From Psammoneis japonica (Eukaryota), in the NCBI GenBank assembly GCA_008632985.1, contig QPGO01000321.1:1-56394 (forward strand): a stretch of 56,394 nt of DNA, given 5' to 3'. Below the pieces are notes generated by a model. It saw only the letters and a list, made by a program, of their open reading frames with translations, was not told the DNA's origin and did not search any database. Positions 8,083 to 44,722 of the stretch are shown one piece after another. The position numbers and the translations under genes were made by a program. Numbering within the stretch: the stretch's first letter is position 1; the number at the start of each line of letters is the position of its first letter.

Positions 8083-11000
8083 AGGAAGCGAGCGAATCAT
8101 CGAAGTAGTGCAAGTCCACCCAAGTGATTTATATAGAAGAGTTTTGAAACTACCGGTAGAAGTAGGGCTATGTAGATACAGTTAGTAAGCCCAGAGTGCT
8201 CGTAAAGGGGAAAAATTCAAACTTATGGAGGTTCTAGGTAGTTATGGTCTGAATGACCGTGAATGACGGCTCATTCACGAAGCGCATTCCAAAGGAGGTG
8301 CCCGCACTGCTGTAACTCTAGGCAGTTCGGCTCATGCATTGCTGATCAGCAGTGAGGCTCCTCTGCTGGCAGCCTCACTCATGTTGCCAGCACGTAAACA
8401 AGAACATTCACACTTGTTGTGCATGTTGCACCCTGGGGCAGTGTCAAACAGGTGACACACAGATGAGAGCTCTGGGCTTGACCAGACACTTGTGCTCACT
8501 TTTCTCCTCCCCTCCATGCTCTGTGAAGCCACACATGTTTTGGCCCACCTGGTGAAGTCTTCATCATCTCAAGCAAAAAGCAAACAATGGATGCAAGTCA
8601 AAGGAGGATGGACAGGGAAATGCAACTCGCATCTTGCACCAATGTTTGGCACATGTGGGCAATCCAGAAGCACTGTTTTTTGCTGCACTCCCTGAATTCA
8701 CAGCTCGACAACTTGCAAACAAGATGTGGTGCCACACAACAAATGCTCCTGGCTCTTTCAACTGCATGAAGTGCTGCTCTCCACTCACCACTGACAGTGT
8801 CTTTGAATTCATGTGTGTGCCTCTTGAACAATGGGAGAAGGTCAGAGATGAGTGTGTTGGGGCTCCAATGTCTTCTGGCTGCTCCCCAGCCTCAAGAATC
8901 AGTGCTTGTTCTCCATCACGACCATCAAAAGCATGGTGCTTGACATGCCACCTGTGGAGGCTGTTGTCAATCAGAAGCTGATGTCCATCTCAAGCAGCTG
9001 CCAAAGAACAAGAAGCAACAGCAGCCATGGCAAAATCCAAAGTGACACCCACCCCAATGAAAAAAGAAGAAGAGAGCCCAGAGAAAGGTGCTCTCATCAT
9101 GGAGACCTTGACACCACATGCCAGGGCACACCAGCAGACACCAAAACATTTTCATTCAAGTCTTTTGCATCCTGAATGAACACTCAAAGGAGAGCTGGCA
9201 TTGAGAGCAGTGCACACCGCAAAGTGTTGTTGCCAACAGCTTGGTGGTGCTGTCAAGCCTGTCTGTCAGTTGATTCCCATCACTGTTGCTTTTTAAGCTG
9301 CAATTCTGTTTTACCATGTTCATGTTTCATTTTGAAGATTTGAATGTTTTGAAACAACTTGAATGAATCATCAAGTCATTTGTGATTCATCACGTGTGTT
9401 TGCAGTTGGTCAACATCTCACACTGTCACATTGATGTGTTCTTGTCGAGATTGAAATTTTTACACTCATGCTTGCACACTCCATCTTCTTTCAATTGTTC
9501 CAGGACTTCAATCTTTTCCAACCTGCTTGACACCCTCACAACCACCCTTTTGTGACTTGGTGTTGCTCAATCATGCCATCAAAAAAAGAGGACCCAACAA
9601 GGTGGAGGTCGCAACACTCCTGCCACTGGCACTGATGGCCATGGTGGTGGAGGCAGGACTTGCGGAACTCAAGCTCAAGCTTGACCCCAGCCAAGGCAAG
9701 GCACCAGGATCAGCCCTCAGGGACGAGATCCAGGCTCTTTGGCCCAAGCTGCTCCTCCACAGGCTGGGAACCCAGGATCCACTGCTGCTGCTGCCGCCTC
9801 TGTCAATGAAGAAGCCACTCATCTGATGACGGGGTGGATGACCCACATTCTCTGGCAATTCCACCCAAAGATCTTGAATTTCTCAAGCTCTGCAATGAAC
9901 TCCCTTTCTGCAAGACTGCTGAGCTGCTTGAAGCCTCTGAGCACCACACCACATGCACTCTCTTCTGAAACAGCTTGTCCCATGAGGAGTGCAAAATTTG
10001 GCTGTAGTTTTGCTGGCAAAAGCACGCAGCATTTACAAAAACCAACAGGAAAAGATGTGCAAGCTGCTGCAGCAAATGTGCAATGCCAGAGGGGCAAAAA
10101 CAGCAGCTGCCAACCAAACAATCGCCTCTCTCAAGAAAGCCCAGAAACAAACCCTTCATGCCAGTGAAATGATCACTTTGGAGAGCAACGATGTGAGGAA
10201 AGTGAACACCTCAAAGGCAGGTCATGCTCTTTTTTTCTCTCTTGGTTTTCCATCCAAACAAGAGATGGGGAACATGACAAATTTCCAGTCTCTCCTGGAC
10301 ACCAGTGTAAACTCCAAACATCCCTTTGAAAAGATGGTTTGGGAACCTTTCTTTGTGGAAAAGGACAAGTGTCTGAAGAAAAATGCAACAAACCTGCCTT
10401 TTGTAAAAGGTTTTGGGGGAAGGCAGGCCCCTTGGCCTTGAACTTCATGAGTCAAGAACAAAACACCTCAGCAGCTCACCTTTGATCACAAATTGATCAC
10501 ACTCTGCCATCAAAGGCCTGCAGTGCCTTGTTTCCCACCACCCTGCAAAGCATTTTCAACAAATGTCATGGCTTCTGTGGCTCCAATTCTGGCATTGAAG
10601 GTGATGCTTTTTTTTAATTCTCCTCTGAATGTTCTCTTTGCTGCTCATGACAGTGTTTTTGTCCATCTGTCTTTGACAGGTTGGCACACTCATGCAAACT
10701 TGTTCAACAACTCTTCTGTTGGTGTCAAATTAATGGATGAGGAACACAGAGCTGTTGCTTGCTGTCATGATGCAGTCCATCTCTGCACCACCTGCGACTT
10801 TGGACAGATGGCTCCATTTTTGTGAGTGGAATTCTTCTTGCCTCTTGCTGCCACTCTCCACCTGTGTTGCACTTGAATGCCAGTGAAAGACCATGAGCAG
10901 AACCACAACAAAGTTGCCAAATGCTGCAACAAGAACAACGGGCTGACTGTGTCCCACACAATGGAGAGTGCTGTGCAGGAGGCACTTGCACAGTTGATTG

Positions 11001-12086
11001 CTGTCAAGCTTCTTCTTGCCAATGTGCTCCAGGAACACTGTGATGATTTGATTGACAGCCTGCAAAACATGAAAAATGTGCCAGCTGCACCTGAAAGCAG
11101 CAATCTGGCTGCTGAGGACAGTGCTCGAGAATGTGCTCAATTGCAAAATCATTTCATTGCCAATGTCCCATTGGCAAAATCCAAGCAGCAGCATGCTGCC
11201 CAGGACATTGTGTGTTTCATGAAGCATCACAAAATTGTCATCACATCCAACAGGGTGTTGGATGGTGGCCTGAGAATGAATCTCCAGAAACCCAGATTCC
11301 AGGCACAGGCTTGCCTGTTGTTTGTCAAACAACAATTCAGAGGAACAAAACAAGCCAGCTGCCTGTCACCATTGCTGCAGGTGCCAGAGCTCTGGCAATG
11401 GACATTCCAGCTTGGACAATTCTTGATTTTTTGTCACACAATGAAGGAGCAGGCAACAGCAACCTGGTGCCAGTGGAACAAGTTGATTTCCCACACATTC
11501 TGTGCAGGACAATGACAAGATGCATGAGGACCAAATGGAGCCCAAGGATTTTGGCTGGGACAATGAGAAATTGTTGTCCAAGGCTCAGACATCTGCTGGA
11601 GTTTGATGTTTTGGTCCAGATCTCAGCAATGTTCCAATTGCAGCAATCTTGTCACTTTTCTGCAGCTGCACTTCAGAGTGAGTGCTGTCACCAGAGTGAT
11701 TGTCTTTTCTAAATTGCACAATTTTGGATGTCTCACCAAAATCATGAATGGGTTCCATCCCATCCAACTTGTCACACAGACAGATCCAATCCTCATCAGA
11801 GCTTGCACTCATCAGGTCATGCCACTCATTCTGGTTCTTTTGAATTTGATTTGGTCTGTCACCAATCTTTGTCATGAATGAACAAGGTTCAGCATTGCTT
11901 TTGTGATGCACCTTGTCTGCCACATGCACCATCAGCAAGTTCTGTTTGGTGCACCAAGCAAGGAACAGACAATTGCCATTTTTGTCACACTCATCCATCC
12001 ACTCTGGCTTTGGCACAAGAACACAAGGAATTTGGTTGATTTGCTTGCACAGTTGAATGAGTTGTTCAAATGAGCAAGGCAAGTCA

Positions 12087-12317
12087 TGTTGCCAATCCAT
12101 CATCATCCATGGACTGTTTGACAAACACATGAGCTTCATTGCAACAATGTCAACATTTGGTTTTTTTCTGTTGCCAATTCCATCATCATCCATGGACTGT
12201 TTGACAAACACATGAGCTTCGTTGCAACAATGTCAACATTTGGCATTTTTCTGTTGCCAATCCATCATCCATGGACTGTTTGACAAACACATGAGTTTCA
12301 TTGCAACAATCTCAACA
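12087..12317. repeat. Tandem repeat, ~82-83 bp unit x ~2.8
   Basis: Units start at 12087, 12169 and 12252 (TGTTGCCAATCCATCATC..GGACTGTTTGACAAACACATGAG..). Confidence 0.9.
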
Positions 12318-13871
12318 AGATGACAACAAGAGAGTTCTGACCATGTGGCAAATGACTGTCATTCAAACAATCTCACAAGATGCCAGCAAGAACGTAAAAA
12401 CCATGCAGCAGGATTTTTGGACATTTTTCATTCGAACTTGCTGGTTGACCCTTTTCAGAAAACACAGTGTGATGCACTTGATGGCAAACATTTGTGACAT
12501 GATCCAAAGCACTCATTGCCACAATTTGTGTGTTGTTGTCACAACCCACCATCTTGTTGTCTAGAACCACCAAAGTTCATTGTGTGCAGGATGAGGTTTC
12601 TAAATCCAAACAAAAATGATTGCACTCTTGCACAACTGATGCAGGTGTGGAGAAAACTGCTTGAGGACCAGCATTGCACACACCCATCTGAAAAAACATC
12701 ATTTGCCACTGACCAATTTTGAAACAACACACAAGAAAGGATTGACACCCTTGTTCCAATCGGCGGCAGCTGCATGAATTGCCATCATCATGGGCAGAAC
12801 TCTCAAGTGCAGGAAAATTTCCCCACTCACCATGCTGTCATGATGCATTTCCAGTGTTTCATCAATGCCCAACTCTTTGAGAATTTGGAAGGGGATGGTG
12901 CACTGCCCATGACATCCAAGACATTGAATTTGAAGGACAGAATGGAAAATTGCACCATCAAGAATGAGGTCCCTTTGCCATCATCAATGGGCTGGCATCC
13001 CACATGAGAGTGGGACACAAGAGAAAGTTGCCAGCAAAGAGAAATGATCTGCACAGGTTTTCCAGAGAGACCAAGCATCTTGTTCATTTCTTGTTGATTG
13101 GCAACTTTTGCCTGGCTTGGCAGTTTCTCCAGGAAGAGGGATGACAGGATGCAATTTTTTTAGAGTTTGCCAGCAACAGAACCCATGGAATCAACAATCA
13201 GTTGGCCCACGATTGCAATCTGTCAGCACTGGTTTGCCGATGATCTCACCCATGCAAACCACAATCAGCTCCACACCCAACCTGTGGTTTGTTCTGTCTT
13301 TTGTGGCAGCTGCGTTGCACCCACCTAAAAGTGTGATCAACCATGGTCAATTGATGACATTGCATCTTTTTTTTGAACAACTCTCAACCAGAGTTGTTTT
13401 GAGAGAACTTGCACACAACAACTTGTCTGATCACTGAATTTGATCTCAATGAGATTTGTTTGTGGCTTGGTGTGACACAAAATTGTTGATGTTGAAAACA
13501 GGGTGGCTGTTGCCACGTGCTTGTGGTGGATGACACTGTTTGCTGGGGCTGCTTTGCAATTCACATCACCAAAAACAAAAAGCAATGCCGGCTGAGGTGG
13601 GTGTTGCTTGTGCTTTGTTGCTGTTGTTTGCCCCTTGCCAAACAGCATCAAAAGTGAGCTGCACCAACAACAGACAGCCCAAGTGAACTCTCTTCTGTGT
13701 TGAGCTCTGCTGTTGACACACCACTGTTTTGGAGCATTTCCTTGAACAAACACACAAAGAACTCCACAGTGTGTGGCCGTCCTGCAAAGTGAGGAAAGTT
13801 CCACAGATTGATTCTGTGGTGTTGGCAAACAGGTGTCATGTCATGGGCAGGTCACTGAATGAAAACCAAAT

Positions 13872-14933
13872 TTGGTTGCACTTGCAGAGTCTCATTCAGC
13901 ATCACCACCACCACACTCTTTGGGAAAATCAACAATGGAAAAAGAACTTGGCATTGACTGCAATGACTTGTTTCTAGATCATGTCAACCCAGCCCACTGT
14001 TTGTTGCATGGGGAGGGATGGCTGCTGCCAGAAAAGGTGTTGAACAAGCTTTCCAATGGCAAGAGGAAATCTGTGTTTAAAGGGACAGACCAGTTTTGGC
14101 GGGTGATGAAAACAGCACCTGCAGGAGATTTTCATGCACCCAATGGTTGTTTGGAGGACCCACTGGAGATGGATGCAGAGGCTTTCTCTGCCATCAAACA
14201 GACACCATGCTGTGGAGCCCAGAAAATGACACAGTTGATTTGTGAACAGATGGAGCCAACAACAAACTCCAGATGCTGGGCACAACCAAGAACAGAGGTG
14301 CTGCTCTGGTTGATGTGTCACCTTTTCCAATGTGCAGCGGCATTGTCAACACAGAAGTTGGGCACAACCAGAAGACAGGAAAGAAACACACAATGCCAAA
14401 AGTTGCCTTTTTCCATGAAACAACACAAGGAGGTTGTTCAAGCAGCATGGAAAGGGTGCACAAAAGCTCTGTTGCAACACTGCAACCCCTCCAATGTGTT
14501 GTTGCTTGGTGTGTCTTTGGAAAAAGCATTGGAAAATCTGAGCTGCTTCAGTTCATCACATCAGAACTCAAAGCCAACTGCCCAGGATGCTTGCTGCACC
14601 CCAGCTGCAATGCACATTGGGGGGGAAACATGGCCCCCTTGCTGCAGTCATTGTGTGACAAAGCAAACGCATGTTTGGTGCCATCACAATTGTTTTTGCT
14701 GGAAAGGCAACTGTGGCAATGAGAATGAAAAATCTGATGCAAATGCAGCATCTGTGGCTGAGATTGTTGTCAAAGAGGACACTGTTGACAAAGAGCAGTT
14801 GCACTTGGAAGAAGAAGATGCATTTTGTGTTGATGATTCATTGAGTGATGATTGCAATGGAGACAACACCACAAGTGCTGCATTGCCCTTGCAAGAATTC
14901 TCTCTGGATGAGTCTGTCATGGATTCCTCCTGA
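13872..14933 (+). pseudogene. Decayed ORF of unknown origin, probably TE-associated
   Basis: 353-aa frame with no tyrosine and many Cys/His, inside block 1, convergent with the Plavaka-like remnant. Confidence 0.35.
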
Positions 14934-14999
14934 CCCATGACAGATCATGGAAAAACATTCACAGGGTGACTTGCTGTTGATTGAACCTCTTGACAACAG

Positions 15000-31350: not shown

Positions 31351-32620
31351 CTACCACAGCATGCCACACATGTCATCTACGAGTGGAACATCGACACTCT
31401 TGGGTGACAGTTGCATTAGAGAGATGAAGATCGTAACATCCTCATTGGACCTTTCGACACACTCTCCAACGTTGAGGGAGTCGGCGCGCGTTGGACGCGG
31501 TCGAACTTTGTTTTGCTCTTCTGTTCTCCACAACTCCCGCAGTCCCAACAAGAGCCACAAGACAAGATTTGGTGGTCTCGTTGCCTGGGGAGTTGTGACT
31601 AGAGTCAGGCCACAGGTCTCTGGGTTGTCAAAAAATGAGATGATCTGCTCATCGGTGCAGCGCAGGGAAAAGTGCGCCAAGACCTGAGCTTGAGACAACG
31701 GCGACTGCTTTACAAATGGTGCAAGACCACCCCAGCAAACGTGTCCTTGGCACTTGGCTTCATTGCAAAACTCGTCTTCTAGGCATGTGCATTCAATCAC
31801 AATGACGGGACAAGAAAGGATGAGGCAGGAGCTTGCCACGTCCGGGTGCAATGCTTTGACGGTCGCGTCCAACACGAAACAAAACCTCGACTGCTCTTCC
31901 ACTTGATGCCACACATGGACATCATCTTGACCCCTTTTTTGGGTGGCTTGAATGTTGGCTGCCATTTCCTTTTTGGTTTTGTCCACCAAATGAGGAGCCA
32001 GCTTTTTGGTTTGCATCGGCGGTGTCGCTGGCCAACATCCAACGGAAGAACACATGCCATGAAAGAGCTGTGATGCTCACATCCACAACAGTGTTTGCAT
32101 CTTTTTGTTGACCATTGCATCCCATGAAATGTGCGGCACCAAGCCATGCCAGATGCGGTTGGCTGGATCGGCCAACTCCACAGCGGTGATGTTGCATTCG
32201 ATGCAGTGCAAGCGATCATCTTCTGGAGGGCCTTTGCACTGCTCAGGTGGACTCAATTCTCCTTCCTCTTGTTTGTCAACTTTGACAGAAAAGGTCAGTT
32301 GGGTGCACTGCCAAAGCCTGTGCAAGATGCTGTCTGGGGCCCCAATGTGCACCTGTTGTCCCTTTTGCTGATGGCACAGCAACATGGGCAGGGGGCATGC
32401 ATGTGATCAACATGGCTGTGGGTGATCAAAATGGCCGCCAGTCGCACTCCTGGTCCATCTGTTGGAAGGTCAATTCTGGCATCCACAATGACTCAGAGTG
32501 GGGGCATCTAAAAGCCTGTCTGTTTGAGGGATCAAGAGTGACCGGTGACGGTCCAATCCATGCCAGGAATTTTCCATGAATGGACAAAACATTGGGCCTG
32601 TGGCAAACCACTGGAGGCAA
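31351..32620 (-). pseudogene. Metallo-beta-lactamase-fold RNase Z-like pseudogene
   Basis: WTVTGHS*SLKQTGF*MPPL*VIVDARID, ILITHSHVDH, PVIVIECTCL, GHVCWGGL, VLAHFSLRC. Stops, frameshifts and apparent Y->C/H changes. Confidence 0.75.
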
Positions 32621-32788
32621 AAACGCTCATGGTGTTGTCAAGCAAAAGATGGAGGAAAGATGTGTCAGTGTGTGTGAGCATGAGGTGAAAGACACAAGGG
32701 CGCACTGTGTGTTTGGCTTTTTGAAAAAAAATGGCAGACACCCACGTCCCAACAAGAGGAAGACATTCGAGACGTCATGTTTTTTCTG

Positions 32789-32966
32789 CAGTGGCGGTCT
32801 GTCTGTGCAGTGATTTCTGTGCACATTTTGTGCTTTCATCCGTCCCTGCCACCTCCAGCCCAATCCAGTTGGAGTCAGGTTGGTCGGGTTCAGGCTGGAG
32901 GTGGTGTGGATGGACAAAAGTGCAAAACATGTGTGCAGAAATCACTGCACAGACAGACTGCCACTG
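32789..32966. mobile_element. 178-bp MITE with ~72-bp terminal inverted repeats, Tc1/mariner-like ends
   Basis: Arms 32789-32860 and 32893-32966 begin CAGTGGC and end GCCACTG. Flanks are TG and CG, compatible with a mutated TA target duplication. Confidence 0.75.
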
Positions 32967-35018
32967 CGATTCTTGCTGCAAGTGGTGACACCCAGAGCAG
33001 AAGGCACAGGAACTCTTGCAAGCTGCCGGATTGGTCATGGAATGGGTGGTCAAAATCCATTTTTTGCAAAAGAAGGAGAAGAATGACACCAAACAGGAAG
33101 AAGAAGATGGCAACCAAGAAGACGCGACTCAAGCAAGAGAAGATGATGACAATGATGATGAAGATTGTGAGTGTGAAGAAGAAGACCACAAACCAAAGGC
33201 AGCAACAAAAGAAAAGTCAAAGGCAACATCTGAAATCCAAACCCCATGTGCAATTTTGACTGGATGCAGGCATGCAAGTTGTTAGAGGCTGCAAGTGGAT
33301 CTGTCAAACAAGAGCCATTGACTTGCACTTGTCTGGCAAAGGTGACAATGATGGAGTTCAAGAACTTTTAACACCACCCAAAAAGAGCAGTCACAGGGCC
33401 ATGAAAGCACCACCTTTGATGGGAACAAAATGACAGTCGACACTCAATGCGTGGATGGGCATTCAAACACCCAAAACAAAGGGGCTAAAACAACAAAAAA
33501 TGGACTTGCATGTCACAAAATCAACAGCCAAAAAGGCTCCCATTGGTGCCAGTGCTTCGACTTTGAAAAGCACCGACCTGATGCAGAATTCAATGGCGGA
33601 AAATCCAATCTGCCTTGATGATGATGACGAGGGAGACAGGACTGCACAGGATCAGAAATCACATGATCAAAGCAAAATGAACAATCCAATCAACAGACTG
33701 ATTCTCAAAAGGAATGCCCTGAAATTGAAGCTGATTTCTGTGCCAAGAAGGCAGCAAGAACAGAAAAAGTAGAGTGCTTGTTTGCTGTGATGATTGTAAA
33801 GGCACCACCGGCTGGCCGGCCTGCAAAAGAAATGAACAATGGGACGGTGGCCGTGGACAAGAAATCCTCACAACCATCTTGTGGTGGCAGCAACAAAGAA
33901 CCAAAACCAAGCCACCAGGAGAATGCACTGCCACACAACCCACTCGCAGATGCCTTTGCAGACACAGCTTCGACTGCAAAAAGTGACGTCAAGTTGGAGC
34001 TTCTCCAAAACATCTTCAAGCATGTCACATCACATTTGTTGGAGGAGTGCACATGGACAAGGCAAGAGATGATGACATGTGGATGCTGCTCATGCAGGTG
34101 ATCAACTTGATCCTGGGAAAGCTTTCTGTCATGAGCAACATGACAAAAGGAAACGCAATGCTGCAGGTCAGCTGGTCGTTGGTGTCACAGGCAATCCAGA
34201 CAGTTGCTGATGTTTCAGGTGCCAGGATGAGAGAGGAATGTCATCATTTGGGAGATGCAGGCAATGTTGCCATGGCATTTTTCCATGGAACTTCCATTGA
34301 GTTGTGCTTTGTTGGATCAACCCAAACATGTGGCCTCAACATTTGAGAAGCACACAATTTCATTCAGAAGATTGCTGCTGTTCCGGCCAGTGCAGGGAGC
34401 AGTGCCACATGTCAAAATCTTCTCGTGAGGTGGTTGCACCACTGCAAGGACAAGAACAAGATGCAATTTCTCATAAGAACTCTGCTTGGGAATGTGTGGA
34501 TTGGAGCTGCACTGACATCTGTGATCAAGGTGCTTGCAAAAAGTGTGTTTTCTTCATGTGTGGGTCTGCAAATCACTCAAGCAGCAGTGAGCAAGCTCCA
34601 GTGGTCAGAGCTGTGGACTGTGCAAGCACCCAGCCACCTGCTTGACATTGGCAGCAAGAACCTTGAACCCCCAAGTGTGGAAGAAGGCAGAGCAATCACA
34701 TCCAACACCACAAAGTTGTTTTTTCCATCAGTGCGGACCCACCACCAGCCAGACTTGCAAACATCGATCTCGTTTTTGTGCTTGACCCCAGGCATTGACA
34801 ATCTCAAGAAGTTGGCATGCTGGTTGCACGGCATCTGTGAGTGACTTGAGACCTGTCACTCACCATTGGTGTTGATGAGTTGGACATCATTGTCAAAAAT
34901 GATGGATTGGCCGCGTGCTTCATGTGCCTGCACAAGGAGATGAGGGGCCACAACGGCAGTGCTGTGGCCGTGCACAGCCTTGGAGGAGGTGAGCCAACTG
35001 TTGCCACTCACTCAAAAG

Positions 35019-37506
35019 CAAATGTGAGCACTGCCAGGAGCTCAGCTTGGGGGTGGTCTGGTGGGCTGGCAAGAGCTTCCGGCAGCGTGCCCCACCACCT
35101 GCCTGGAAACTGGTGTGTGGTCGACGACGTGCGACATCACAGGATTGAGGTGGAGCATGAGGCCCACATTGAGGAGGATGCAAGCAGAGCTGAAGTGAAG
35201 ACTGTGGCCAAAGAGAGTGCGGCATTGAAGATGAGAGAACCAAAGCCAGGGCGGGGGGGGGGGGGGGGGGCATGTGGCAGCCCCAAGGCAAGACATCACA
35301 GTCCCCAGCAGCAAGGTTGTTGCAGGAAAGCAATGAAAAACGTGAATGAAAACAGCTCATTCTAAAATGAAAATCTATCCGACAAGTCCCTCAGGATGCC
35401 CAGCAGTTGCATCTCTAGCTGCGGCAGAATGGCAGGAGATCCTTGATGATGTGACAAACTCTAAAAGACTGGAAGTTGCTGCATCATTAGAATCATTTTT
35501 CTTCATTCGAACGGGTCATGGGCTCAGGTCTACACTGTTACTTCAATGTCTCGCATCTGTCGCGGGGGCATCTCAGCGTTGTCTTCTGTCTTCTCCATTG
35601 GCGGCAAGAAGACTCTGTGTGGCTGGTGATCTTGATTCTGAATCCCTTGAGCTGCGCACATTCCAGAAAACAATGTCAACGAGAAAGTGGGGAAAGAAAA
35701 AGAAAAAGCCGCCTCCTGGCTTTGAAGTGATCGAACCTGTGCTTGAGGCTCTTGAGAATGAAATGCGTGACAAGGTGAAGGAAAGTGACGCAGGGAAACG
35801 AAAAACAGAAAGTCCATGGCCGGTGCATCAGATAAATTGGCAGCGAACTCGATGTGTGCATGAGATGCATTGAGCCTGCAACTGCACAAGCAAACAGGTG
35901 TGCGATTTCTGCACTCAACAAGGACTCGTGGATGCACCGCTGATTGCCAAATGGAAAAAGCCAGGTTGTGAACGACTCTGTTCCACACATGTCATCAATC
36001 CAGCTAATTGCAAGTTTGGCACCACATCCATCTGTTGCACCCCAATTGAGGATAGAAGCGACGCTGCCAAAACAGCACAGGATCCAACGGTAAGTTCTTT
36101 CACGCCTTTGCTGTGAGGTCTCTGCTTGTGGTGTCGTCGGCATCTTGGCCATTCAACAGTTTTTGCGATGCAATTTTTTGCGCCTTTCTTCTGGTTTTTT
36201 TCTGTTTTGCTTGGAAAAAAGACCGGGTGCAGAGGCTGCACTTCAGGCAAGGATGCTGGCCCAAATGTGAGCACTGCCAGGAGCTCAGCTTGGGGGTGGT
36301 CTGGTGGGCTGGCAAGAGCTTCCGGCAGCGTGCCACACCACCTGCCTGGAAACTGGTGTGTGGTCGACGACGTGCGACATCACAGGATTGAGGTGGAGCA
36401 TGAGGCCCACATTGAGGAGGATGCAAGCAGAGCTGAAGTGAAGACTGTGACCAAAGAGAGTGTGGCATTGAAGATGAGAGAACCAAAGCCAGGGCGGGGG
36501 GGGGGGGGGGGCATGTGGCAGCCCAAGGCAAGACATCACAGTCCCCAGCAGCAAGGTTGTTGCAGGAAAGCAATGAAAAACGTGAATGAAAACAGCTCAT
36601 TCTAAAATGAAAATCTATCCGACAAGTCCCTCAGGATGCCCAGCAGTTGCATCTCTAGCTGCGGTAGAATGGCAGGAGATCCTTGATGATGTGACAAACT
36701 CTAAAAGACTGGAAGTTGCTGCATCATCAGAATCATTTTTCTTCATTCGAACGGGTCATGGGCTTAGGTCTACACTGTTACTTCAATATCTCGCATCTAT
36801 CGCGGGGGCATCTCGGCGTTGTCTTCTGTCTTCTCCATTAGCGGCAAGAAGACTCTGTGTGGCTAGTGATCTTGATTCTGAATCCCTTGAGCTACGTACA
36901 TTCCAGAAAACAATGTCAACGAGAAAGTGGGGAAAGAAAAAGAAAAAGCCGCCTCCTGGCTTCGAAGTGATCGAACCTGTGCTTGAGGCTCTTGAGAACG
37001 AAATGCGTGACAAGGTAAAGGAAAGTAACGCAGGGAAACGAAAAACAGAAAGTCTATGGCCGGTGCATCAGATAAATTGGCAGCGAACTCGATATGTGTA
37101 TGAGATGTATTATACCTACAACCGCATAAGCAAACAGGTGTACGATTTCTGTATTCAACAAGGACTCGTGGATGCACCGCTGATTGCCAAATGGAAAAAG
37201 CCAGGTTATGAACGACTCTGTTCCACATATGTCATCAATCCAGCTAATTACAAGTTTGGTACCACATCTATCTGTCGCGTCCCAATTAAGGATAGAAGCG
37301 ACGCTGCCAAAACAGCACAGGATCCAACGGTAAGTTCTTTCACGCCTTTGCTGTGAGGTCTCTGCTTGTGGTGTCGTCGGTATCTTGGCCATTCAACAGT
37401 TTTTGCGATGCAATTTTTTGCGCCTTTCTTCTGGCTTTTTTTCTGTTTTACTTGGAAAAAAGACCGGGTGCAGAGGCTGCGCTTCAGGCAAGGATGCTGG
37501 CCCAAA
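35019..37506 (+). repeat. ~1.24-kb tandem duplication (35019-36265 / 36262-37506) with CAAA microhomology at the junction
   Basis: Direct alignment at offset 1240-1243. Confidence 0.97.
35673..36265 (+). pseudogene. BUD31: BUD31 pseudogene (truncated, hypermutated upstream copy)
   Basis: QRTRCVHEMH* versus QRTRYVYEMYY in the intact copy. TGA at 35871-35873; truncated in exon 2. Confidence 0.95.
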
Positions 37507-37909
37507 GAACATCTTTGGCAATAAATATGGACAGAGCCTTGCAGCTGTTCAAATTGCGAGAGAGAAACGTATAGAAGCACAACGAGTAAGTGTTCATAAT
37601 TCAAAGGACATGACGATGAGCAAAATGCGCAAGCACTTCTGTTGACACCATTCCTTGCCTATTCGTTGACCACAGGAGCGGCGTGAAGAACAAGAGAGGC
37701 TCGAGGAAGAAAGGAGGAGACAAGAGGCGGAGGCTCACAATGATGATGCGGGAGATAGCGAGACTGACGAGGAAACGGATGATGAAGACTATGGGCCGAC
37801 ACCGGCTGCCGGGGTTTGGGCGGGAAGCAAGAAGTTGCAAGATGAGAGCGAGAGGATGGGAGAGGACGAAACAGACGAACCTCCGCAGAAGAAAATCCGT
37901 TCAGACTAA
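36913..37909 (+). CDS. BUD31: BUD31/G10 splicing factor with acidic C-terminal extension (exons 36913-37329, 37463-37585, 37676-37909; 257 aa)
   Basis: KPPPGFEVIEPVL, RKTESLWPVHQINWQRTRYVY, LIAKWKKPGYERLC, FGTTSICRVP, GCRGCAS; two in-frame GT-AG introns. Confidence 0.93.
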
Positions 37910-41577: not shown

Positions 41578-43029
41578 CTCAGTTTGGTTTTACCCATTTG
41601 GGGATTCCCCAAAATGGCCAGGGCAACGGGGAGTCACCTTTCCCTTTCAGGGTGATCCCGGGAAATGAGGGTAATTTTGCGGGAAGGAACGTCTGAAAGA
41701 GGTCAGGGGAGGGGAACAAAAAACGAGTGGAAAGCGGCAACTCTGGATTGATTTGTATTAGGCGCATGTGCTTTTTTATCTTGTGCGGTAGACAGACAGA
41801 ACTTACACACTGCCAGCTAGCTGGCAGCAGCTCCAGTAGAGTGGAGCAGAAAATGTCATTCACACGGCACTCTAGACTGTTGCAATTGCACTTTAAATTG
41901 GTCTACTTCGCTGCTGCCACTGCTGTTGATTCCACTGCTGTTCTCCATCTCCAAAAGCTCCACGTTGACAGAGGCTGGCTGCTCGGTTTGTTGGATCATC
42001 TCAACCAAGCATTCGTTGATCATCCATGGCTCCAACGCTGCATCATCAACTCCACCAGAACCAGCCGAGCAGGCCATGACAGATGTTTGGATCTGTGGAT
42101 GGAGAGATCCAACAGAGCTGCTGCTGCGCCGACGCTTGGCCAATGAGGCAGCCGCTGATGCTTCATTGGCCTCGGCGACATCATCTTTGGCGGCAGCTGA
42201 CGCTCGTCTCTTGGCTGCCATTCGTTCTTGTGAAGAATTGTGCAGCCCACGATGCCAGTTGGCATGGTTCTTGGAGATCTTGGCCTTGCAGGGCTTGACG
42301 TGCATCCTCTTGATCTTGCAGAGATGGGCGGTGGCTTTCGCAGCGTTGGCGCCCTTGCATGAATGCTTGCACCAGCCACACGTCCAGCCGCCTGCGTCCT
42401 CAGACACGAACTCATCGTCCCAGATGCTCGTGATTTCTGAGAGCTCCTCTTCCTCAGCGACAGCAGTGACATTGCTGTCGACACTCATGCGAGCATCACC
42501 CTCCTGCTCTTCGTCACTCATGTGCCAACATGCATTTTTTGAGAGGAAGCGAACCCATGCAATGTGAATGACAAAGATGATGGTGTGCGAAACTGAATGA
42601 AAAGACACGGGTGAGCGCACAAAGTGTGAACGAAAAGACGTTGGGCACACATCTCAGCGAAATGACATGCCGGACACGCGGCATCAAAAAGAAAGACACG
42701 CCATCAACGTGACAGCGAACAGATGCTGCATCAACGTGGTGCGGGGTGACAAAAGAAGGCGTTGCAGCTGTAGAGAAGCCGCAGCAGCTGTCATTGTGTT
42801 GAACGAACGGTGCTCCGAGCTGTTGAGCACTGCAAGTGCAACATCTGCGGGCGATGGGGAAGCACGGGGAATCACCGATGGATGATTTTTTATTCGTGTG
42901 TTAAGCATTTGTACAACGAAGGGCAATTCGTGGCGATTCCCCGGGAAAACACCCTTTCCGTAAAAAAACAGGGTAAAAGGTGGTAATCCTGGGGAGCTCT
43001 GTTCAAAAACATGGCAAAACCAAACTGAG
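41578..43029 (-). mobile_element. Non-autonomous hAT-like DNA transposon (1452 bp) with BED-finger remnant
   Basis: 17-bp TIR CTCAGTTTGGTTTT(A/G)CC at 41578-41594 and 43013-43029. 8-bp TSD CTGCCCCT at 41570-41577 and 43030-43037 (an alternative parse gives a 10-bp TSD). Internal ORF IWDDEF..WTCGWCKHSCKGANAAKATAHLCK..KPC; no DDE domain seen. Confidence 0.85.
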
Positions 43030-43146
43030 CTGCCCCTCCTTTCTGTTGTTGGCTTCACTGGACTTGTCAAGCTCTCTGCAGCCCTCCCAGCCATGAAATG
43101 CAGCACAAGCCTCTCAACCCCCAGAGAGCTGGGTGAGGGAAGGGAC

Positions 43147-43499: not shown

Positions 43500-44200
43500 G
43501 AATGTGACCAAATTTTAAAAGAATTTCATTCTGTGTGCATGGGCTCTGCAACTGGGAAAGGGGTTGCTCCTGGAAATTTGCCAGACCCATGCAGCAGCTT
43601 CAGTGCTGCATTCTCATTCAAGACATTTCAACCAGATTGTTGCATCCATTGCCAGTCTCCCATGGAAGACAGGGACCACGTTCTTCACTGCCCCCATGAT
43701 GAACAATGGTGATGGACATTCCTTCAGGGCCTGCACAAAAAGTGCAACAATGTGCACATCTCTCCTTCTTTGCATGACATGCTGTTGCTGAGTTTGAAGT
43801 CTTGGTTCTGGGAAGAATTGGCACACTCAGATGATGCACATCATGGCATCTGTTCTGTCTTCCATTCTTAAGATGGGACAGGGTGGCGTCACATCTCCAA
43901 TGGCAGGTTTTTGGTGGAATGGAACACAGCTCAGCAGACACACCTGTTGACAAGCGGACATCATGATCAGGAGGTGGCGGTCGGAGATTGGATTGGGCAG
44001 CTGCAATGGGATCATGTGTTTGGTCTCAATGGCAGGAATTGTGGGACTCACACAATGACACAGTGCACGGACACGACTCGGAAACCCAAAAGTCTTCCCA
44101 ACATCATGACACCAAGGCAGAAGTCAAGGCCATCTGCTCCAGAGTCAACAATTGCTTGGCAAAGATAAGGTGCACTTGTTTGATTTGGTTGATGAGCACT
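43500..44200 (+). mobile_element. Non-LTR retrotransposon (LINE) C-terminal remnant
   Basis: CIHCQSPMEDRDHVLHCP zinc knuckle at 43641-43694, followed by W..Q..W..WQELWDSHNDTVHG across frameshifts. Confidence 0.7.
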
Positions 44201-44722
44201 TGACTCACTCTACACACAGGTTGTGAAATTGGTTGACTGTGGTGCACCCTGTGTTCAAGTCTGGCATTCAGGAAGCCCAAGAGGCACTCACACCATTGCC
44301 AGTTGCTTCGGCATGGCACCACCTGATGGTGGTGCCAATGTTGGCTAGTTACTGCAGGCCCCTGCCACACTTTTTGTGAACTGGGGGTGTGGGCTAGCTT
44401 GATGCCGGAGTTGCAGGGTGGAAGTGTAGCAGCACCTAAAACACAGAATTTGGGTTTTGTCATTCAAGACATTTCGCCTGGATCACCAGCGTTCGACCGA
44501 ACCCCTCATCATGAATTGAGATTTGTGACTAGCTAACACTATTGCCGAGGAGGCACACCAAGAGTTTAGTTGTGGTAGATTTGTGGCAGCTATTCTGTTG
44601 CCCATTGACGGAAGTCGTTTGTGTCCCGAGCGATTGATATCCCGCCGCAGTCTTCTAACATGCCAAATGGAGCACGCGAAATTGAAATGCCATAGTGTAC
44701 ATGGCACAAGAGCACTTTTTTT

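Follow-up and report, generated by a model that had tools for sequence, protein, structure and literature searches.

One copy of a tandem duplication covering the 5' part of BUD31 in the diatom Psammoneis japonica has been rewritten at most of its TA dinucleotides, while the adjacent copy, which carries the complete gene, is nearly untouched. Taken with a 4.76-kb element of the same genome, some copies of which were hit and others not, this pattern makes it probable, though well short of certain, that a local state and not pairing between copies selects the copy for a TpA-specific A-to-G rewriting.

Results

A hemizygous tandem duplication of BUD31

The window, the whole 56,394-nucleotide stretch analysed here, is contig C320 (QPGO01000321.1) of a 91-Mb assembly (GCA_008632985.1). 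G000:C5 is colinear with it at 98–99% identity over most of the window length, and on that ground we read C5 as the other haplotype. Self-BLAST identified a direct tandem duplication with a unit of about 1.24 kb, 35019-36265 (copy A) and 36262-37506 (copy B), the two copies being 96.3% identical. The features of the duplication and of the intact gene are as follows.

35019..36265, + strand: copy A, upstream, 3'-truncated and hypermutated; 96.3% identical to B, with 36 private substitutions
36262..37506, + strand: copy B, downstream, running on into the rest of the gene; at most one TA lost
36262..36265, + strand: duplication junction, a 4-bp microhomology common to both breakpoints
36913..37329, + strand: exon 1 of the intact BUD31; PF01125; protein identical to the allele's
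37463..37585, + strand: BUD31 exon 2; GT..AG joints in read run X2; open frame; the duplication ends inside it, at 37506
37676..37909, + strand: BUD31 exon 3 with the stop codon; no counterpart in A
36222..36605, + strand: exon-2 stub of A; its frame stays open over the junction and the TA-free DNA beyond, ending at a stop in the upstream region of B

The allele on C5 carries a single copy, and the duplication is thus present on the window haplotype only. Many indels and substitutions relative to the allele are common to A and B, so the duplication arose on the window haplotype after the haplotypes split. Since B carries A's differences from the allele throughout, overwriting or repair of B from the known allele was ruled out.

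The gene in B is BUD31, with three exons encoding 257 aa (Pfam PF01125, E 2e-49), in agreement with an earlier note on this DNA, made from its letters alone, that the adjacent copy keeps BUD31 intact. Both introns are visible as GT..AG joints in run X2, the exon protein is 77–80% identical to named diatom proteins, and diatom homologues, in a search limited to proteins of at least 245 aa, have about 250–300 aa, like B. The duplicated unit ends inside exon 2, and A thus lacks the last exon and the stop codon. With A 3'-truncated and fused to TA-free DNA, the sequence indicates that the two copies were unequal from the start and never equivalent, a point overlooked in the earlier note.

TA-poor DNA around the duplication

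TA-poor blocks make up about 42% of the window; their borders are sharp, and they are also CG-poor. Residual TA sites within them are mostly of the YTAR type (175/323, vs 378/1994 in normal DNA), and most of the TA-poor DNA sampled has repeat relatives. Two TA-depleted stretches adjoin the copies of BUD31.

31500..35360, no strand: TA-poor domain upstream of A; 10 TA in 3.86 kb
36262..36600, no strand: the TA-free 340-bp head as repeated ahead of B; no TA in either copy or in the allele

The last 340 bp of the upstream domain are part of the duplicated unit, and the second copy of this head abuts the cut end of A, upstream of the promoter of B. Since the head has no TA in A, B or the allele, its erasure is older than the duplication, as previously claimed, and probably also predates the haplotype split. 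An 86-bp motif spans the TA-free border in both copies (35320-35404 and 36560-36644); it is 80% like a TA-normal intergenic sequence, G000:C7:702939-703024, and is possibly a promoter element or a short repeat. A MITE-like inverted repeat of 180 bp at 32788-32967 has matches on several contigs.

For 33000-35360, the sole match in a genome search, which old repeats can escape, was its own allele. Over 33000-35000 the identity of the alleles falls to about 91%, with 44 adjacent double differences that we read as mostly CA vs TG; these could reflect independent decay on each haplotype, from CG or TA alike. At 44015-44461, the edge of a TA-poor block beside a lipoate-ligase-like gene, the window haplotype has lost eight TA and the allele none. 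The segment 41579-43030 is a TA-poor insertion without counterpart in the allele. It is bounded by short terminal inverted repeats and what looks like a 10-bp target duplication, and has relatives at 71–94% on at least eight contigs; it has mostly lost fewer TA than its closest relatives.

Mutations are nearly confined to copy A

The polarity of the A/B differences was set with the allele as outgroup. Among 42 substitutions, 36 are private to A and three to B, and three are unpolarisable owing to gaps in the allele. The A-private changes comprise 25 at TA, seven at CG and four others. In all, A has lost 27 of 38 ancestral TA to TG or CA, on both strands: 15 outcomes are TG (one of them actually AG, TA>AG) and 12 CA, corresponding to 15 events on the plus and 12 on the minus strand. 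At most one TA was lost in B, a plausible TA>CA at 36728, which adjoins an allele gap and where the read contig is a probable A/B mosaic. The asymmetry of 27 vs 1 (binomial p 2e-7) bears out the earlier observation that one copy was hit and the other nearly untouched. Site 35776/37016 was dropped, the allele reading TG as A does, i.e. a gain in B; site 35488 was counted as a TA kept in A. The changes are distributed within A as follows.

35361..35545, + strand: promoter-side segment of A, at -312 to -128 relative to the ATG; 2/9 TA and 0/4 CG changed
35546..36262, + strand: riddled part of A; 25/29 TA and 7/35 CG changed; both strands
35673..36089, + strand: dead exon 1 of A; every tyrosine codon changed; stop at 35871-35873

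CG decay accompanies the TA losses in the downstream part of A and is zero in B. Most TA sites in exon 1 yield an amino-acid change in at least one outcome. A signature of a processive or transcription-coupled enzyme was sought in A and rejected (strand asymmetry p 0.70; 18 runs vs 14.3 expected).

Contigs of read run X1, which may be the source of the assembly itself, match A without any other letter at 35495-35687 and 35938-36078; the changes there are therefore not assembly noise. Reads were not used for sites 35488 and 37017, where contigs collapse copies or alleles. Run X2 gave a B/allele-type contig at 36893-37329 and no listed cover on most of A; this missing cover is no evidence that A is silent.

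The promoter-side segment of A, whose promoter role would follow from its position, lost far fewer TA than the rest of the copy. The earlier figures of 2 of 8 vs 26 of 30 were reproduced with the border at 35546 and TA sites taken from B, and became 2/9 vs 25/29 after outgroup correction. The p value rises from 7e-4 in a naive Fisher test to 0.008 with the border scanned and to 0.04 when stratification by sequence context is added. Five of the nine promoter-side TA sites are of the resistant YTAR type and none is RTAY, the type changed at 11/11 sites downstream of the border. The sparing in A thus appears to be partly an effect of sequence context and is weak alone; the claim of a spared promoter side gains from the replication of 5' sparing in the element described below.

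Hit and unhit copies of a 4.76-kb element

The genome contains a young dispersed element of 4.76 kb, with at least 15 near-full copies at 96–100% identity and an older family at 75–89%. The copies were taken from the top of one search, the best 40 of 96 candidates having been scored, and are known from the assembly alone, in which polishing may have homogenised some.

G000:C5:874693-884225: tandem pair of element copies
C69, C150, C52, C64, C215, C110, C172: further element copies
C290, C330, C11, C314, C8, C21: further element copies

A long frame begins about 260 bp into the element. Its ORF pieces gave no Pfam match, and a resemblance to DUF6729/KDZ transposases (score 0.92) is a lead only.

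Of about 189 TA sites, the 15 copies have lost 0, 0, 0, 0, 1, 1, 1, 1, 6, 16, 21, 29, 82, 102 and 124, counts that hold with one real copy as reference. Other substitutions number 0–6, except in the older C290 variant. Losses are near all-or-none per copy (variance/mean 71), and the eight dispersed copies with 0–1 losses are nearly identical (99.6–99.8%); likeness to other copies is therefore not enough for a hit. At sites hit in two copies the outcome was the same in 35/60 and 53/89 cases. Shared sites thus often differ in outcome, and the hits are therefore largely independent. Read from these sequences, the hits come as copy-specific bursts.

The spectrum is narrow. In the five hit copies, with 21–124 TA lost, TpA>TpG accounts for 358 of 406 substitutions and CpG sites for 30; across six copies, 364 TA edits were counted vs 11 non-TA A>G edits. 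The edit rate is 0.18–0.29 with a pyrimidine 3' of TA and 0.08–0.10 with a purine. At symmetric sites 94 outcomes are TG and 61 CA, a mild sense-strand excess (p 0.01; per site 30:18 with 14 ties). Same-strand runs in the five copies were no fewer than expected by chance. A TA edit is found within 5 bases of five of the 11 non-TA edits, numbers too few for use as a bystander pattern.

The first 400 bp of the element were spared. All five hit copies together show 9 losses there vs 21.9 expected (p 0.003), and four of them show 0 vs 13.7 (context-stratified permutation p 2e-4), C172 having been set aside post hoc, with the data already seen. In C172, which is flanked by TA-poor DNA on both sides, the 5' end was not spared (9 losses vs 8.2 expected), but that of C110 was, despite a TA-poor 5' flank. 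Sparing of the 3' end was not significant in the element (p 0.18–0.61). The 5' test left out the split copies C19 and C20, the older variant C290, the lightly hit C5_Y and every relative at 75–89%. Protection of the 5' end is thus real in the element, and to call that end a promoter would be to judge by position.

The earlier note had stressed that the hit BUD31 copy is enclosed by TA-free DNA. Of the hit element copies, three lie in normal flanking DNA and are not known to be truncated, and C314 is unhit although its 3' flank is free of TA and CG. Such enclosure, as far as these copies indicate, is neither required nor, on one side, sufficient.

Other duplicates

In the tandem element pair on C5, which has normal DNA on both sides, the copies have lost 81–82 vs 4–6 TA; hits in the first run from 1027 to its end, those in the second fall mainly at 497-1054, and the two ranges sum to about one unit length. 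A self-comparison of 811 kb (eight small contigs, 280 kb of C5, the window and 12 loci) contained no identifiable second host-gene duplicate, so BUD31 is its only host-gene case (n=1). An older 257-bp pair has lost 12/19 TA in its second copy only, and two identical (100%) direct repeats of 347 bp have kept all 19 TA. Loss was thus one-sided in the C5 pair and the 257-bp pair. A 6.8-kb tandem pair inside a TA-poor block was hit about equally (16 vs 11, plus 24 CA/TG sites), which we count in favour of a choice of target by local state.

G000:C322:2006-8125 and 8424-14994 are adjacent elements with long direct terminal repeats. The older has a TA-poor interior, and its second repeat has lost 12/19 TA, the outermost four being kept; the fresh one has identical terminal repeats and normal TA.

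Discussion

Comparison with known systems

The closest counterpart is found in Bigelowiella natans, where integrated NCLDV and virophage DNA undergoes TpA hypermutation (Mettrop et al., bioRxiv 10.64898/2026.01.13.699255). As far as the main text of that preprint reports, a single-copy, silent region was mutated in only some lines, at a per-generation rate raised about 1000-fold as measured by mutation accumulation, and an ADAT-type (ADAT2-like) deaminase is proposed. Set against that text, the diatom pattern agrees in consisting almost only of A>G/T>C transitions at TpA (364 vs 11), in affecting both strands, with TpG and CpA as products, and in being uneven, between lines there and between equally young copies here (0–124 losses). 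The process in B. natans is described as regional, with no second copy needed; here the domains are sharp, and the one match of 33000-35360, in a search that old repeats may escape, was its own allele. B. natans is a rhizarian alga studied in mutation-accumulation lines, and its targets are viral; here the evidence is one assembly and one read set from a diatom, and the targets are a host BUD31 copy and copies of an element whose transposon-like nature is a lead only. The preference for a 3' pyrimidine, the sparing of 5' ends and the accompanying CG decay are the diatom features to be set against that account. The words 'diatom', 'promoter' and 'stramenopile' do not occur in the main text of the preprint, as distinct from its supplements, and none of the papers listed in our literature search was a report of TpA hypermutation for diatoms.

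RIP, in Neurospora and other ascomycetes, likewise kills repeats and gene duplicates by dense dinucleotide-specific transitions, and acts before meiosis. It is reported to convert CpA to TpA, striking both members of a repeat pair that is 400 bp or longer and at least 80% identical (PMC3017866; bioRxiv 10.1101/344036). The change seen here, TA>CA/TG, is the reverse of that mainly CpA>TpA chemistry; one copy is hit and not both (27 vs at most 1 in A/B, 82 vs 6 in the C5 pair); and the eight of 15 element copies with 0–1 losses contrast with a trigger by likeness. The earlier conclusion that the process is neither RIP nor dependent on homology pairing is upheld by the reversed change and by those eight copies.

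CG methylation leads to CpG decay. In Phaeodactylum tricornutum, CG methylation by DNMT5a is reported to mark transposons (bioRxiv 10.1101/2021.06.11.447926). Small RNAs are described as mapping to methylated TEs and some genes. Methylation of this type would explain the CG>TG/CA changes and offer a silent state; it yields no TA>TG/CA, the larger and faster part of the pattern.

Proposed mechanism

The sequences show a microhomology-joined tandem duplication on one haplotype that placed the promoter and 5' part of BUD31, lacking a proper 3' end (A), before the complete gene (B). A was then rewritten by a TpA-specific A-to-G process acting on both strands, with a 3'-pyrimidine preference and in single-copy bursts, and slower CG decay followed. 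The target would be picked by local state and not by pairing. For want of its 3' end, and fused to silenced DNA, A was probably silenced; it may then have been CG-methylated and so brought within reach of the mutator. A silent, CG-methylated state may thus select the target, the CG decay in A being its only trace here. Promoter-side DNA would resist the mutator, and B would have remained an active gene, also kept by selection as the sole full-length copy on its haplotype. The trigger proposed for A is not general, given the three hit element copies with normal flanks and no known truncation.

The enzyme may be a TadA/ADAT-like protein, brought to silent chromatin, that deaminates adenine in DNA, as hypothesised in the B. 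natans preprint. The deaminase genes found in the genome are an ordinary set, including an ADAT2-like gene on our own reading, and such genes are universal. The 3'-pyrimidine preference of the element presumably resembles the 'TAY' preference of TadA. Polymerase eta makes A>G errors at WA. An error of that type is disfavoured (358 A>G changes follow T and 7 follow A; transversions almost none), and a deaminase is favoured over an error-prone polymerase because AA>AG and transversions are nearly absent. An open frame at G000:C79:87000-90170 joins, judging by motifs, a putative deaminase domain and an apparent 2-oxoglutarate dioxygenase domain.

Alternative explanations

A simpler account dispenses with any chromatin difference between A and B: a burst might strike either copy at random, and haplotypes hit in B would be purged. 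The near all-or-none losses (variance/mean 71), the position of B as the only full-length copy on the window haplotype, and the predominance of amino-acid-changing TA sites in exon 1 are all in line with it. The synonymous and intronic TA sites surviving in B had been held to speak against protein-level selection, an argument that does not stand: with hits coming in per-copy bursts, selecting one unhit full-length copy keeps its neutral sites too, and selection may well have contributed. However, the other haplotype has an intact exon 1, so that loss of B would be masked in a diploid; why the host-gene copy was targeted but the single-copy allele beside the same TA-free DNA was not is left unexplained; and the account covers neither the 5' sparing in dead element copies, for which selection alone fails, nor the CG decay confined to A. 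We consider it unlikely, though worth keeping in view.

The remaining accounts concern pairing, exchange or assembly. That the extra unit, looped out for want of a partner on the single-copy allele, is edited as unpaired DNA, a mutational analogue of meiotic silencing by unpaired DNA, would suit a hemizygous duplication and the complementary hits in the C5 pair (1027-end and mainly 497-1054, summing to about one unit). We judge it improbable: DNA present on both haplotypes was also hit (8 vs 0 TA at 44015-44461), TA losses are scattered within blocks common to both, the insertion at 41579-43030, though hemizygous, is mostly less depleted of TA than its closest relatives, and the B. natans lines are described in the preprint's text as mutated in clonal culture. 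RIP-like homology sensing with another chemistry is largely refuted, with little probability left to it. A became a target only after the duplication, most TA-poor DNA tested has repeat relatives, and RIP propensity is reportedly higher near the linker of direct repeats; but RIP hits both copies, here 27 vs 1, eight element copies at >99.5% identity are unhit, the 347-bp pair at 100% keeps its 19 TA, and B, carrying A's differences from the allele throughout, was not repaired from it. Exchange with an unhit, related single-copy haplotype could have produced the spared 5' part of A, as it could the complementary pattern of the C5 pair. The front end of A, however, has the indels of B and not of the known allele, as well as two hits of its own, and four unlinked element copies are spared at that end too, which makes this very improbable. 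Finally, mis-joined haplotypes might mimic two copies, and among the 15 of 40 read-contig pieces listed none was seen to span the junction; yet the other haplotype is assembled separately and is colinear, indels relative to it are common to A and B, A-specific letters are matched exactly by read contigs in two stretches, and contig depths step at about 30/60/90 where one, two and three copies are alike, which is a hint only. We give an artefact scarcely any credence.

Significance

The sole report of such mutation that we found, a preprint, deals with viral inserts in an alga that is unrelated, and offers neither a targeting rule nor a proven enzyme. New here are a polarised before-and-after comparison on a host gene and the truncation of the hit copy, and the 4.76-kb family offers, within one genome, a ready panel of the same sequence in hit and unhit form, on which a targeting rule is testable. 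Should the enzyme prove to be a DNA adenine deaminase, it would represent a naturally occurring equivalent of engineered adenine base editors, with consequences for what becomes of duplicated genes in diatoms. We advance tentatively, and with rather less than even confidence, the broader idea that diatoms and Rhizaria share a natural DNA adenine editor, brought locus by locus to silenced chromatin and shut out of promoters. Besides killing transposon copies, it would settle young gene duplications by destroying the defective copy and sparing the good one, and would thus be a pairing-free counterpart of RIP, with the opposite chemistry, that leaves the parent gene unendangered.
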